Assembly (NCBI GenBank): GCA_003220475.1
Contig: QHSO01000011.1
Span: 608-64,607 of the forward strand
Length of the DNA stretch: 64,000 nt
Source: Candidatus Rokuibacteriota bacterium
Lineage (GTDB): Bacteria; Methylomirabilota; Methylomirabilia; Rokubacteriales; CSP1-6
Direction of reading: 5' to 3'
Position 1 is the first letter of the stretch; each line of letters starts with the position of its first letter. The position numbers and the translations under genes are program-made. Below the pieces are notes generated by a model. The model was not told the origin of the DNA. It saw nothing but the letters and a program-made list of their open reading frames with translations, and did not search any database. Below are positions 35,036-38,963 of the stretch, one piece after another.

Positions 35036-35653
35036 TCAGCGCCCCCAGCGGTATTCGCCGTCGGAGCCGGGGCGGCCGCGGCCGCTGCTGCCGTCGACGC
35101 CGCGCTTGGGACCGCGCTTGTTGGCGCCCGGGCCCTTGCGGCCGGCCGGCTTGTCGCCGAAGCCGCCGGGACCTGCGCCCCGCCGCTGCGCTCGACCTGG
35201 CTTGTCGCCGAAACCGCCGCCCCCGCCGCCGGCCGGCCGATCACCGAAGCCGCCCGCCGGACGCTGGCCGCCGCCGGCGCCGAACCGGGGTCCGCCGCCG
35301 CCTCCTCCGCCGCCGAATCGCGGGCCGCCGAAGCCGCCGCCCGCGGGCCGATCGCCGTAAGGGCGGGGGCCCCCGGCCGGACGCGGCGGGCGCGGACCAC
35401 CCGCGCCGCGCGGCGTGGCCTTGTCGACGCGGATCATGCGGCCGTCGAGGGAAGTCCCGTTGAGCGAGGAGATGGCCTTTTCGGCCTCCTCGGTGGTCGC
35501 CATCTCGACGAAGCCGAAGCCCCGCGAGCGGCCGGTCTCTCGGTCGGTCATCACGGCGGCCGACATCACCTCGCCGAAGCGCGCGAAGGCGCCGCGCAGG
35601 CCCTCGCTCGAGGTGGAAAATGAGAGACCACCGACGAACAGCTTCACGGACAT
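35036..35653 (-). CDS. RRM RNA-binding protein with long Gly/Arg/Pro-rich tail
   Basis: KLFVGGLS (RNP2), RSRGFGFVEM (RNP1); repeated GGFGD(R/K)P units. Confidence 0.95.
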   Translation of the reverse strand: MSVKLFVGGLSFSTSSEGLRGAFARFGEVMSAAVMTDRETGRSRGFGFVEMATTEEAEKAISSLNGTSLDGRMIRVDKATPRGAGGPRPPRPAGGPRPYGDRPAGGGFGGPRFGGGGGGGGPRFGAGGGQRPAGGFGDRPAGGGGGGFGDKPGRAQRRGAGPGGFGDKPAGRKGPGANKRGPKRGVDGSSGRGRPGSDGEYRWGR

Positions 35654-35736: not shown

Positions 35737-36426
35737 ATGCCGCCCAGGAATCCGGACCTCCACGGCAACGCCCCGGATAGCTCGCGCGTGGCGCTCGTCC
35801 TGGTGGATGTGATCAGCGATCTCGAGTTCGAGGACGGCGACCGGCTGCTGCCTCATGCCCTCGCCGTGGCCGATCGGCTTGCCGTGCTGGCGGCCCGCGC
35901 CCGGCGCGCCCGGGTGCCCGTCATTTACGTCAACGACAACTTCGGGCGCTGGCGATCGGACTTCCGGACGCTGCTCGAGCGCTGTCTCGAGCGGCGCGTG
36001 CGCGGCCGCCCGCTCGCGCGCCGGCTGCGCCCGCGCGCCAGCGACTACGTCGTCTTGAAGACCAAGCATTCGGCGTTCTATGCCACGACGCTCGAGCTGT
36101 TGCTGCGATACCTGGGCGTGAGCTCGCTGGTGCTCACCGGCCTCACCGGCGATCGTTGCGTGCTGTTCAGCGCCAGCGACGCGTTCATGCGGGACTTGCG
36201 GCTCTGGGTCCCGGCCGATTGCGTGGCGTCGATCGATCCCGAGCACAATCGCCGCGCCCTCGACGAGATGGCGCGTCTCTTCGACGCGGATCTCACGGAC
36301 TCGACGCGCCTGGTGCTCTCACGCTCGGCGATCAAGCGGCGGGCGCGGGCAGGAGCAGCGCGACTGCGGTCAGCGCGAGCGCCAGCAGCACGGCCTGCGC
36401 GGAGATCTCACGCCCCTGCCGCTTGA
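35737..36426 (+). CDS. Isochorismatase-like cysteine hydrolase
   Basis: LVDVI.D, PVIYVNDNFG.W, K.KHSAFY.T, TGLTGDRCV. Confidence 0.9.
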   Translation: MPPRNPDLHGNAPDSSRVALVLVDVISDLEFEDGDRLLPHALAVADRLAVLAARARRARVPVIYVNDNFGRWRSDFRTLLERCLERRVRGRPLARRLRPRASDYVVLKTKHSAFYATTLELLLRYLGVSSLVLTGLTGDRCVLFSASDAFMRDLRLWVPADCVASIDPEHNRRALDEMARLFDADLTDSTRLVLSRSAIKRRARAGAARLRSARAPAARPARRSHAPAA

Positions 36427-36706
36427 GCTCCGTGACCGCCCAGGCGTCGGTCACGGGCTCCACGCCGGTCGACGTCTCGCGCAGTCCGCGCGAGGCCAGT
36501 CGCGTTCAGGTGCTGCCGTGCGCCTGCAGGAAGCCGAGCGCGGCGACGAGGAGCGGCACGAACAAGACGAGTCGTGCGCCGCGCGCGAGACCGAAGAGCG
36601 CAAAACCGGCGGCGAGCACGAGGGTCAGCGCCAGTCCCGCCACTCCCATCAGGGAGCGCCGGCGCCGCCCGCGCGATTCGAGATTCGTGACCAGAGGCAC
36701 GGCCAT
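36332..36706 (-). CDS. Putative 3-TM membrane selenoprotein (124 aa)
   Basis: LGFLQAHGST-TGA(36506-36508)-TRLASRGLRE...VTD...LKRQGREISAQAVLLALALTAVALLLP continues with typical codon usage and a third TM; hairpin after TGA. Confidence 0.7.
36470..36502 (-). promoter_or_regulatory. Putative SECIS hairpin of the membrane protein
   Basis: CGAC-tggc-CTCGCGC-GGACT-GCGCGAG-ac-GTCG: lower stem, internal loop, 7-bp upper stem, loop starting GG at the 19th nt after TGA. Confidence 0.6.
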
Positions 36707-36812
36707 CGCGATGCGCGCTTACCCTATCATCGTTGCCAACCGGGCGGCCTGGATGCTAGATTCGACGGCAACTAGCCGTTTTTCAGGCGGTCGAGGCGAG
36801 ACAGGAGATCTC

Positions 36813-37253
36813 ATGGAGAATCCCGCGGTGACGCACGCGCGCGAGCGACTGAGCCGCTGGCTCGAGGACGGCCGCGAGCTGCTCGCCCTGCTGCCGGAGG
36901 TGCTCGACTCCGGGCAGAAGACCGCCGCCAAGCTCGAGCACGCCGAGCGCGACGCGGAGCGGCTGCGCCGCGAGCTGATGGAGCTGCGCAAGGAGCTGTC
37001 GGAGGCGAAGGATCGCGCGCAGAACAACGAGGCGGAGCGGCAGCTCGAGGAATACCGCAGGCAGTTCGAGGAGCTGCGTCGTGCCAACGAGCAGCTGAAG
37101 AACGAGAAGGACGAGGTCGCGCAGGCCTTCGCGAAGCTGCTCGAAACGATGCAGTCGACCAATCAGATCGCGCAGAAGCTCGGCGTCACCAAGAGCCCGT
37201 TCGCCCGCGCCCCGAAAGAGTCCGCGTCGCCGACCTCGCCGACGCACGAATAG
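36813..37253 (+). CDS. Coiled-coil hypothetical protein (146 aa)
   Basis: AGGAG RBS; E/R/K/L heptad-rich sequence. Confidence 0.75.
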   Translation: MENPAVTHARERLSRWLEDGRELLALLPEVLDSGQKTAAKLEHAERDAERLRRELMELRKELSEAKDRAQNNEAERQLEEYRRQFEELRRANEQLKNEKDEVAQAFAKLLETMQSTNQIAQKLGVTKSPFARAPKESASPTSPTHE

Positions 37254-38963
37254 CTACTTCTTCATCCCGCGCGTGTCCTTGCGCAGCGTCAGGCCCAGCT
37301 CGAAGCTCGTCTGCCGCATCGGATCGGCGTTGAAGATCGCCAACCAGATCGCCCCGTAGTCGCGCCCGACGCCCGGCACGCCGGTGCCCTCGGCCGAGAG
37401 GCGCCGCACGTCGAGCTTGCCCGCTTTGCCCGCGGCGGGCACCGTCATCAGAAAGCCGGCGTCGGACGGCGCGCCGTCGACGCTCAGCTTCACCTCGATG
37501 CCGTGCGCGTCCTTGAGGTCGGCCTGGATCGAGAAGAATCGCGTGGTCAACGGCGGCAGCGGCCCGTCGAACTTGTGCTCCTTGAACCGCTGGTTGTCGG
37601 CGAGGAACCGCTGGGCGGTCTGCTCGGTCTCGCCCAGACGCGGTGTGGGGCGGCGGAACACGCGCGTGTCGTCCTTCGAATGGATCATGCGCGCCTGCAC
37701 CCACGGGCCCGGCTCGGGCACGGCGGCGCGCAGAACGTTCTCGATGAACTTCGGGTACGTTTCGCTCAGACGGCCCTGCGCGACGAGATACTCGTAGAGC
37801 TGCGTGCCGATGGGCTTCGACGGATCGGACTTGAGGTTGGTCAGTGCGTTGGCGATGCACCCGGGGCTCTGCTTCTCGACGTGGTCGAGGATGAGCGAGT
37901 ACCCGTACGCAAGCAGGCCCTCCTCGAACTCGAGACTCTGCTGGATCGGCGCCGACAGCAGGTAGGGATACTTCGTAATCTCTTCGCGCGTCGCCTCGGA
38001 AAACCCGAGCGTGTTCTTCCACCCCGACCAGCGGGCCGATGCCGACAGCCACCACTGCGCGCTCTCGTCGGAGCCCGAGCCGTCGCCGCGCCCGGCGGCC
38101 GACGGCGCCGCCGCGGGCGCGCCAGCGACGGGCTCGGGCTCGCGCACCCGCTGCGGCGGCATCCGGTCGACCTTCTTCGGCGGCGTCTGGCGCGGCGGCG
38201 GCGCGACGACCGGTTCCGGCTCCTGGACGCGCACGGGTTCTGGGGGACGCACGGGTTCGGGGGCACGCACCGTCTCGGCGAGGCGCACGGGCTCGGGCTC
38301 GGCCAGCGCGGGCGCGCGTGCGCTCTGCTCGCCGAGCACGAGGTGTTTGCGCGCGGCTGCGACGGCGGTCTGCCGCCCGAAGGCCTCTGAGATGCTCTCC
38401 TCGAGCGCGGAGAATCTGGCGTCGTCCAGCCCCTCCGTGGCCTCGAGCATCGTCAGGAGATCCACGAATGGGTGCGCGGCCGCCTCGAGTGCCTCGATCT
38501 GCTCCGCCGTCGTCTCGGTCAGGGCGAGCGCGGCCTGCTTCAGCTCGGCGGCCTTGTCTTGCGCGACGACGAGCGGCTCGAAGCTCTCGTCGTCCCGGTG
38601 ACGCACGCCGGCGATCCGATCCAGCACGGCGACGACGCGCTCACGCGACTCGTCGAAAGCCGCACGCCGCTGCTCGGCCTGCAGCGCGTCGGTCATGGCG
38701 ACGAGCACCGGCTCGAGGCTCCTGGCGCTCTCGATGCCGTCGGGCACTACGAGGCCGAGCGTTTCGGCGGCGAGGACGATCTCGGCGCGCAGCTCGATGA
38801 ACTCGCGGCTGCCGGTCGCGAGCGCTTCGACGAGCGCATCGGACGGCGGCGCGCCGCCGTCCTGCAGCTCGCGCGCGGCTTCCGCGAGCTTCGCCCCCAG
38901 GTCAGCGAAGCGCCCGGTGAGGTCCGCGAGTTGGCGAGCGAAGGCGTCGAGGTTGACGTTCAT
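37254..38963 (-). CDS. Hypothetical protein (569 aa): helical N-domain, Pro-rich linker, globular C-domain
   Basis: Long ORF with coding-like composition; PEPVR repeats in the linker. Confidence 0.8.
   Translation of the reverse strand: MNVNLDAFARQLADLTGRFADLGAKLAEAARELQDGGAPPSDALVEALATGSREFIELRAEIVLAAETLGLVVPDGIESARSLEPVLVAMTDALQAEQRRAAFDESRERVVAVLDRIAGVRHRDDESFEPLVVAQDKAAELKQAALALTETTAEQIEALEAAAHPFVDLLTMLEATEGLDDARFSALEESISEAFGRQTAVAAARKHLVLGEQSARAPALAEPEPVRLAETVRAPEPVRPPEPVRVQEPEPVVAPPPRQTPPKKVDRMPPQRVREPEPVAGAPAAAPSAAGRGDGSGSDESAQWWLSASARWSGWKNTLGFSEATREEITKYPYLLSAPIQQSLEFEEGLLAYGYSLILDHVEKQSPGCIANALTNLKSDPSKPIGTQLYEYLVAQGRLSETYPKFIENVLRAAVPEPGPWVQARMIHSKDDTRVFRRPTPRLGETEQTAQRFLADNQRFKEHKFDGPLPPLTTRFFSIQADLKDAHGIEVKLSVDGAPSDAGFLMTVPAAGKAGKLDVRRLSAEGTGVPGVGRDYGAIWLAIFNADPMRQTSFELGLTLRKDTRGMKK

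Follow-up and report, generated by a model that had tools for sequence, protein, structure and literature searches.

An in-frame UGA codon conserved in a soil bacterial phylum marks a candidate family of small membrane selenoproteins

Does the TGA at positions 36506..36508 of the minus strand end a gene or lie inside one? This question is raised by a 66-amino-acid open reading frame (ORF) in a stretch of 64,000 nucleotides from a Candidatus Rokuibacteriota bacterium (contig QHSO01000011.1), which we refer to throughout as the window. On translation with table 11, the ORF occupies 36706..36506 of the minus strand and ends with GFLQAHGST followed by the TGA in question, which is codon 67. When this TGA is read as selenocysteine (Sec, U), the frame carries on for 57 further codons until a second TGA at 36334-36332 and encodes 124 residues. 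The gene read in this manner spans 36332..36706 on the minus strand, with an ATG at 36706-36704 and 124 sense codons at 36706..36335, and both halves of the frame are present as an initial annotation of the locus had described them. The evidence presented here makes it very probable that this is a real selenoprotein gene whose UGA codon 67 is decoded as Sec under the direction of a hairpin in the same gene, and that its product is a three-helix membrane protein in which we infer a redox-active nucleophile.

The frame past the internal TGA has the typical codon usage that the initial annotation ascribed to it. In a window of 70.7% G+C, the in-frame share of G or C at third codon positions (GC3) is 0.85 before the internal TGA and 0.91 after it, as compared with 0.80 and 0.57 in the other two frames of the downstream part. 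The whole stretch is also present in two soil-metagenome assemblies, which show no difference at the TGA. This agreement gives weak support, because one or both assemblies may be the source of the window. Many sequencing runs labelled soil metagenome likewise contain DNA of the window.

Comparison of close relatives demonstrates that coding constraint carries on unchanged past the TGA. When codons differing by a single base were compared within three groups of close relatives, the share of synonymous differences in the proposed frame was 0.58–0.67 upstream of the TGA and 0.63–0.76 downstream of it, whereas the other frames yielded values of 0.01–0.24. The downstream motifs and the third helix are also conserved in the family alignment. 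Part of this region is shared with a convergent ORF of the isochorismatase family (35737..36426, plus strand; PF00857 at residues 19–187 of 229), which is not part of the system and runs 95 nucleotides into the 3′ end of the selenoprotein gene. Across six genomes of the same genus, codons 94–120 in the overlap show a synonymous share of 0.68 in the selenoprotein frame versus 0.24 in the hydrolase frame. This difference, together with the end of the Pfam domain at residue 187 of 229, bears out the earlier remark that the hydrolase has a low-complexity tail here and that the opposite strand is the constrained one. The last roughly 42 isochorismatase codons beyond the Pfam domain (36298-36426, plus strand) are rich in Ala and Arg and show no coding constraint, and either the annotated end of that ORF may lie too far downstream or the tail may be a tolerated by-product.

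The internal TGA is a conserved feature of the gene within its phylum. A search with the protein matched 21 of 61 related genomes, at identities as low as 36%, and all 21 matches carry the in-frame TGA. A scan of the phylum with a family profile matched 63 of 251 genomes, of which 54 have the in-frame TGA, one of them in two copies of the gene. Seven matching genomes, all from one genus, lack the stop, and the remaining two matches are fragmentary or weak and do not cover the column. Loci extracted from the phylum genomes gave 40 distinct sequences with the TGA (hereafter Sec forms), all of which have it in one alignment column, preceded by an invariant Thr and followed by [VT]-x-L-A-[AS]-R-G-x-R. 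Unpublished genomes (G020, G094 and G135) account for 3 of the 54 genomes with the TGA and supply 2 of the 40 sequences; the conclusions would stand if they were left out. Since related genomes are not independent, these counts describe conservation and do not amount to statistical tests. One locus, L038 (G037:C75), matches only from residue 37 on and has no N-terminal motif in frame; its gene may be frameshifted or broken in the N-terminal part.

Outside the phylum, the column conserved as TGA nearly always holds Cys. A search of 1.84 billion representative proteins returned 448 relatives at E ≤ 1e-3, and the column was inspected in the best 150 of these, of which 140 are full-length; two long repetitive proteins were left out and four more have fewer than 100 residues. 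The column holds Cys in 135 of the 140 full-length relatives, Gly in two, Asp in two and Ser in one, as the initial annotation had anticipated in placing Cys at the TGA. Relatives with a residue other than Cys, or with a Gly variant, are P0003, P0040, P0111, P0123, P0137 and P0148. Four further entries among the best 150 are half-proteins with the TGA as their exact boundary (two of 66 and two of 57 amino acids). Truncation of database entries at this point had also been foreseen and is common in public entries, where about 22 of 37 matches are 66 amino acids long with 53% query coverage and so end at the TGA. The motif Q(A)xxxxC...LAxxG, which the initial annotation had given for related proteins, agrees with the consensus FQAxxxTCVxLAARG of 60 aligned proteins. 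Homologues that end at the TGA with no conserved downstream region, or that have some other residue than Cys there, had been named as the pattern that would speak against a selenoprotein; what was found is a constrained downstream half and a column occupied by Cys in nearly all full-length relatives.

Five genes with a Cys codon at this position (Cys forms) were also found in genomes of the same phylum. In a tree computed after masking of the Sec/Cys position, the Cys forms of one genus fall within the clade of Sec forms, beside a Sec form of the same genus, although this part of the tree is weakly resolved (Shimodaira–Hasegawa-like approximate likelihood-ratio support of 84–85). Sequence comparison therefore suggests, for this genus, a reversion from Sec to Cys.

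The organism has the means to translate UGA as Sec. A single contig of its own genome (G000:C124:11791-16492, outside the window) carries adjacent genes for tRNA-Sec (L001; 69.7 bits against a gathering score of 47), selA (L009; 589 bits) and selB (L011; 369 bits). The selD gene (L093; G000:C102:8784-9734, outside the window) itself contains an in-frame TGA (...SCAGU-ASK...) and, past it, a hairpin of 8 pairs whose loop is GAUC. All four genes score above curated cut-offs. Thus, the presence of tRNA-Sec, selA, selB and a TGA-containing selD indicates that this organism decodes some UGA codons as Sec. A reassigned genetic code is not the cause of the interrupted frame: TGA terminates the selenoprotein gene itself and 57 of the 85 window frames of at least 300 codons, a count that includes spurious frames.

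A hairpin resembling a bacterial selenocysteine insertion sequence (SECIS) follows the UGA codon. The initial annotation had described two stems and a loop that starts with GG, and the computed fold recovers this arrangement at 36470..36502 on the minus strand. Specifically, an outer stem of 5 pairs (36502-36497 with 36474-36470) leads to an inner stem of 7 pairs (36494-36488 with 36482-36476) that is closed by the apical loop GGACU (36487-36483). The stem–loop is kept in all 40 Sec forms, each of which can form a contiguous stem of 4–7 pairs (median 6) around a loop that opens with GG, and the loop lies 18 nucleotides past the UGA in the columns of alignment A4. Bacterial SECIS elements typically have such a spacing and an apical loop that contains a G, as known from the E. 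coli fdhF element and from published models. Among eight Cys-form genes, the corresponding stems have 0–5 pairs (median 3), and three of the five Cys forms of this phylum have lost the GG through changes of Gly to Asn or Gly to Ser. A scan of the region against Rfam gave no family, the best match having an E value of 0.11 and falling far under its gathering score.

Fold energy is uninformative in a sequence of 71% G+C, and the case for the hairpin therefore rests on comparison between genomes. Covariation, modest overall, is seen at individual pairs: one pair occurs as CG, GC and GU, the loop is closed by an A–U pair in four sequences (Arg CGA together with Ser TCG), and one further sequence has an A–U pair through a change of Arg to His together with Ala to Val. 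Codon usage in the stem is more telling. The Ala codon at +5 relative to Sec is GCG in 33 of 33 Sec forms, the Arg codon at +6 is CGC in 34 and CGA in 5 and never CGG, and the Arg codon at +9 is CGC in 33, CGT in 2 and CGA in 5. By comparison, the third base of the Gly codon in the loop (+7) is free (GGG in 16, GGC in 12, GGT in 11 and GGA in 1), and Ala and Arg columns elsewhere in the same genes mix GCC with GCG and CGC with CGG, CGT and AGG. Synonymous sites in the stem are thus constrained, and this pattern of codon usage is stronger evidence for the element than is covariation.

The encoded protein is predicted to consist of three long helices interrupted by a short soluble segment. It begins with the motif N-[IL]-G-x3-R-R-x-R at residues 8–17 (36656..36685, minus strand, as are all coordinates in this paragraph), in which N8 and R17 are nearly invariant. 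Hydropathy and AlphaFold2 place a hydrophobic helix 1 at residues 19–40 (36587..36652; helix 11–38 in the model), and this is followed by helix 2 at 42–64 of the model (36515..36583), which has a hydrophobic core at 46–60 and ends in Q61-x4-T66 directly before Sec. Past the Sec position, the consensus V-x-L-A-A-R-G-x-R-x-x-D-x-G-x-E-P-V-x-D corresponds to a segment modelled as a short helix (68–72) and a β-hairpin (75–84; 36455..36505). The third membrane helix, which had been noted when the locus was first described, is present in the model at 88–118 (36353..36445), with an amphipathic start (LRRQAR) and a hydrophobic stretch at 104–120. The AlphaFold2 model, built from a 60-row alignment, is a very confident one, with a predicted local distance difference test score of 96.4 and a predicted template modelling score of 0.86, and it places Sec67 in the short loop between helices 42–64 and 68–72.

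Residues on either side of the Sec column are conserved throughout the family. Among the 140 full-length relatives, N8 is found in 133, R17 in 135, R45 in 121, Q61 in 133 and T66 in 121, and the spacing from N8 to Sec or Cys, measured in 47 sequences, amounts to 59 residues in all but one. Lys and Arg number 11 on the side of the N terminus and long loop versus 2 on the opposite side. According to the established positive-inside rule, this distribution predicts that the N terminus and Sec are cytoplasmic and that the C terminus is outside, so that Sec would lie at the cytoplasmic face of the membrane.

The protein gave no above-threshold match to a Pfam or NCBIfam family. A Pfam scan of the window protein gave no family, a Foldseek search of the model against the PDB gave no solved match (best E value of 1.7), and a profile search of PDB sequences gave no matches at E ≤ 1. 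The best NCBIfam match was to NF038216 (ABZJ_00895 family; E = 5.7e-4) and was rejected: its 19.8 bits are below the cut-off of 33, it spans residues 23–74 and thus only hydrophobic helices, it is probably compositional, and only 1 of 60 family members matches, namely the window protein itself. When the 60 members were scanned singly against Pfam and NCBIfam, only scattered weak matches appeared, and two natural Cys forms gave no match in NCBIfam. A natural Cys homologue (P0014) falls, in a language-model protein atlas, solely into unnamed ‘hypothetical protein’ clusters that have no Pfam families. All named members are likewise called ‘hypothetical protein’, and the labels of their metagenome-assembled genomes include Planctomycetota, Zixibacteria, Anaerolineales and Actinomycetota; a scan of named genome contigs matched three distant Actinomycetota metagenome-assembled genomes. 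No fused forms were found among proteins of 243–2000 residues, in a search that constitutes weak evidence. A homodimer prediction with two copies of a natural Cys form (89-row alignment), run without controls, gave a score of 0.00, which speaks neither for nor against oligomerization. By these comparisons, the family comprises widespread proteins of about 120 residues that neither Pfam nor NCBIfam models and that have no relative of solved structure.

The initial annotation had placed the protein outside the common thioredoxin-like selenoprotein families, and this placement is well founded. No hidden Markov model of the thioredoxin family matches, and the model of three long helices plus a β-hairpin is of a different kind. 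In the Sec motif, T-U-[VT]-x-L-A, the three residues on either side of Sec include no Cys, and there is no UxxC or CxxU arrangement.

A resemblance to the membrane domain of YgaP (DUF2892, PF11127) had also been suggested, and this is true only in a loose sense. The two groups share an N-x-G...R...R...G start, two hydrophobic helices and a Cys right past helix 2, and both are small stand-alone membrane proteins that have Sec forms at that Cys in this phylum. In terms of architecture, the AlphaFold2 model (helices 11–38 and 42–64, Sec at 67) shows the helical hairpin with the Sec position just past helix 2, which amounts to no more than a resemblance. The Cys motif does not agree, being G-[WYHF]-C-P-x-[WY] in stand-alone PF11127 proteins (fused forms vary after the Cys) and Q-A-x3-T-C-V-x-L-A-A-R-G in the new family, which also has about 55 additional residues that form the short helix, the β-hairpin and the third membrane helix. 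The window protein does not match PF11127 even at E ≤ 10. Three of 60 family members match weakly (best E value of 0.0011), whereas true members in the same genomes score 26–78 bits. An hhalign comparison of alignment A1 with 20 PF11127 sequences of the phylum aligned 23 columns, confined to the N-terminal motif (probability 19%, E = 0.0012). Membership in PF11127 was rejected on the strength of the sub-threshold scores and a profile match of only 23 columns. Thus, the N-terminal motif and the plan of a helical hairpin followed by Cys stand as likenesses, and the two groups are set apart by their Cys motifs, their lengths and the third helix.

The true PF11127 genes of these genomes are stand-alone, fused to rhodanese-like regions or located before another domain. 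Eight of 12 inspected loci (L073, L102–L105 and L107–L109) have a TGA at the conserved Cys (G-[WY]-U-P...), and the other four (L099–L101 and L106) are Cys forms. The Sec forms carry a strong, conserved hairpin of 8–9 pairs about 15 nucleotides past the TGA, and TGA-bearing PF11127 matches occur in about 17 genomes of the phylum. These genes probably represent a second unlisted family of membrane selenoproteins, given that they are absent from Table 1 of a 2026 review (PMC13188914).

What role might Sec serve in such a protein? The distribution of other cysteines differs between the two forms. Among 135 Cys forms, a second Cys lies 1–3 residues before N8 in 83 and at +9 relative to the column in 17; none has both and 35 have neither. 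Among 39 Sec forms, by comparison, a Cys is found 1–3 residues before N8 in 6 and at +9 in none, and of the 33 with neither, 32 are entirely free of Cys. Within one genus, four of the five Cys forms carry Cys at +9, a position that is Arg in every Sec form. Among thiol peroxidases and methionine sulfoxide reductases, a resolving Cys is required by the Cys enzymes and often dispensable for the Sec enzymes. The partner-Cys pattern of the new family resembles this arrangement, which favours a redox-active selenol. The likeness extends to a single invariant nucleophile, an alternative second Cys that is mostly missing from Sec forms, and conserved Asn, Gln, Thr and Arg residues around the nucleophile; unlike the window protein, which is embedded in the membrane and shares no sequence or fold similarity with them, those enzymes are soluble and have a thioredoxin fold. 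More generally, Sec in place of Cys marks a reactive nucleophile. The same expectation is expressed in section 7 of PMC13188914.

A mechanism consistent with these patterns can be proposed. SelA, SelB and tRNA-Sec would decode UGA codon 67, directed by the in-gene hairpin with its GG-starting loop, and would thereby insert Sec at this codon. Sec67 would then reside on the cytoplasmic side of the membrane, in the loop that follows helix 2, beside N8, R17, Q61 and T66. A substrate would oxidize the Sec or Cys at the membrane surface to a selenenic acid or a mixed selenenylsulfide. Most Cys forms would be recycled through their second, resolving Cys, whereas Sec forms, which mostly have no second Cys, would be re-reduced directly by a soluble thiol reductant. 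Our leading guess for the substrate is a peroxide or another oxidant at the inner leaflet, and the exact function is something that we infer only from patterns in the sequences.

Several observations weigh against this reading of the locus. The hairpin is no more stable than shuffled sequences (76 nucleotides, z = 0.10), and the conserved peptide A-R-G-x-R, written in GC-rich codons, would on its own make much of it. Covariation is modest, with 76% and 80% of cells paired in two registers, and a control slid by -2 performs as well as the named register; the modest signal is explained by the stem itself, a (GC)n run with two possible pairing registers, of which different subgroups use different ones. 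The contrast set comprises eight Cys-form DNA sequences, three of them from a low-GC phylum, and one natural Cys form (L070) retains the hairpin. Five of the 140 full-length relatives carry Gly, Asp or Ser rather than Cys at the Sec column. P0003, from a read-level protein assembly, shows Gly as well; this is a near-copy of the Sec form in G007 (L020), which has TGA where P0003 has Gly, and the Gly could reflect variation at a single base or an error of sequencing or assembly. The redox role, for its part, is read from the Cys patterns of sequences that are related and hence not independent. Furthermore, gene context provides no functional lead and cannot choose between functions, since conservation of the neighbours does not reach beyond a few genera.

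Two alternatives concern the decoding of the TGA itself. If the TGA were a true stop, the product would be a two-helix protein of 66 residues, and what follows would be either a separate small gene translated by re-initiation or a decaying remnant. Gene callers annotate it in this way, as the 66-amino-acid public entries attest, and two entries of 57 amino acids begin right past the TGA. Moreover, the codon after the TGA encodes Val in 33 of 40 Sec forms and is GTG, a possible start, in 22. The window gene and its five closest relatives, however, have ACG, ACC, GCA or CTG at this position, which would be unusual starts. In addition, the 135 distant homologues noted above are continuous with Cys in exactly this column, the TGA has been retained across at least three families of one class with coding constraint downstream, unlike in a pseudogene, and the genome has the Sec machinery and the gene a suitably spaced hairpin. 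A true stop is thus highly improbable. The second alternative, in which UGA is read as a standard amino acid (Trp, Cys or Gly) through suppression or a variant code, could draw on the Gly found in the column in one read-level protein assembly and one contig-derived protein. It conflicts with the use of TGA as the commonest terminator of long frames in the window, with the complete Sec system and its TGA-containing selD, and with Cys, the classical homologue partner of Sec, as the residue in relatives, and we give it almost no credence.

Two other alternatives accept a genuine selenoprotein and differ over what it does. The main functional rival to the redox enzyme favoured here is a relay, in which Sec or Cys would carry sulfane sulfur or selenium as a persulfide or perselenide at the membrane, as proposed for rhodanese–YgaP, TusA and YeeE-type proteins. 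The YgaP-like architecture (the N-x-G...R...R...G start, two hydrophobic helices and Cys), the local profile match at the N-terminal motif with the three weak PF11127 hits, and the exchange of Cys for Sec in true PF11127 genes of the same phylum all agree with such a role, as do the Arg residues after Sec (U-x-R-x3-R-G-x-R), which can be likened to anion-binding Cys loops. Rhodanese-like and YeeE/YedE selenoproteins are also listed in Table 1 of PMC13188914. Conversely, no rhodanese, TusA, DsrE or sulfur-metabolism gene is found among the conserved neighbours and no fusion to such domains was found, and a second Cys at one of two sites but never at both, as in 100 of 135 Cys forms, is what one would rather expect of a resolving Cys, although a relay protein may have two Cys as well. 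We hold the relay to be unlikely. A lesser rival is the binding of a soft metal or metalloid (Hg, Cu, As or Cd) for sensing or for transport across or along the membrane, possibly by an oligomer, since the protein is small and might oligomerize. A putative mercuric transport protein, a Cu/Zn efflux transporter of the SO_0444 family and an E1–E2 ATPase occur in the 2026 inventory (PMC13188914). Metal binding would nevertheless sit poorly with a family that has no family-wide His, Met or second Cys, whose invariant partner residues are Asn, Arg, Gln and Thr, whose nearby genes include none for metal resistance and whose Sec forms mostly have a single chalcogen residue, and it is accordingly less probable still. 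A more specific version of the favoured redox enzyme would be a previously unrecognized membrane-embedded chalcogen enzyme with its own three-helix fold and an active site of N8, R17, Q61, T66 and Sec or Cys67 at the inner leaflet, which might reduce lipid hydroperoxides or another membrane-borne oxidant and run a one-selenol cycle in the Sec forms, whereas the Cys forms would depend on a resolving Cys at either of the two sites. In this detail, the proposal is doubtful.

Published inventories were compared with the family. The 2026 review (PMC13188914) gives, in its Table 1, the domain identifiers of 119 families and subfamilies of prokaryotic selenoproteins. None of the Pfam, NCBIfam and TIGRFAM models in that table, which cover all but a few rows defined by cd or PTHR identifiers, matches the protein or its relatives, which is the outcome of the comparison with published family lists that the initial annotation had called for. 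The families of Haft and Tolstoy 2025 (mSystems) were judged solely through the NCBIfam models in PMC13188914. The membrane selenoproteins in Table 1 include YeeE/YedE (PF04143), the putative mercuric transport protein (PF02411), the SaoP permease and the SO_0444 efflux transporter. These share with the new family an integral membrane location, the exchange of a conserved Cys for UGA-encoded Sec and a bacterial SECIS within the gene; they differ in being larger transporters, and their Pfam and NCBIfam models match neither the protein nor its relatives. The words ‘transmembrane’ and ‘membrane protein’ are absent from the text of the review. In the passages covered, deep-Sep (PMC12013277) and BSepDB (PMC13326102) treat other new families, or known ones only. 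In the literature covered by full-text searches, nothing was found that links selenoproteins with DUF2892 or YgaP or that describes such a family. Within this scope, sequence comparison indicates a new selenoprotein family that is unnamed and absent from the 2026 inventory.

The surroundings of the gene vary among genomes. Upstream of the selenoprotein gene, across a gap of 108 nucleotides, lies a divergent gene for a 145-amino-acid coiled-coil protein with no Pfam match (36815-37253, plus strand), followed by a gene for a 569-amino-acid protein that also has no Pfam match (37254-38963, minus strand). On the other side, beyond the isochorismatase ORF, is a gene for an RNA-binding protein of the RNA recognition motif (RRM) type with a long Gly/Arg-rich tail (35036-35653, minus strand). 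When the ORFs of 47 loci were clustered, these four neighbours recurred in just 18–19 loci, all from a small number of related genera. In an Actinomycetota locus, the neighbouring genes encode an esterase, a GntR regulator, an FAD oxidase and a solute-binding protein, and no conserved partner gene emerged across the 47 clustered loci and this one.

Some sequence features bear on transcription. An extended −10-like element (TGnTAGGGT; 36721-36729, minus strand) lies 14 nucleotides ahead of the selenoprotein ATG, which would suggest a very short leader, and its TGATA part recurs upstream of the start in loci of the same genus. A promoter scan found TTGCCA-18-TAGATT, a promoter-like sequence, at 36733-36762 on the plus strand. 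Contigs from two soil metatranscriptome runs cover only 36200-36320, on the isochorismatase side, and a 33-base metatranscriptome piece at 36610-36642 has three mismatches and flanks that are unlike those of the window.

If the protein is a selenoprotein as proposed, its family is among the few selenoprotein families that are integral to the membrane rather than soluble with a thioredoxin fold. It would stand out in being membrane-embedded, in having no domain model and in showing a clean contrast between Sec and Cys forms in their partner cysteines. The Sec forms, with no partner Cys, and the Cys forms, with one of two partners, would amount to a natural experiment on the reasons for which cells bear the cost of selenocysteine. 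Gene callers routinely cut selenoprotein genes short at the TGA, and each genome of this soil phylum that has a Sec form would therefore carry a wrong, half-length protein. Were the more specific proposal of a membrane-embedded chalcogen enzyme true, the family would form, together with the Sec forms of DUF2892, a layer of small membrane selenoproteins of soil bacteria that gene callers have cut in half. Because Sec marks the residue that does the chemistry, the finding would also provide a first functional handle on a widespread group of ‘hypothetical proteins’ of about 120 residues.

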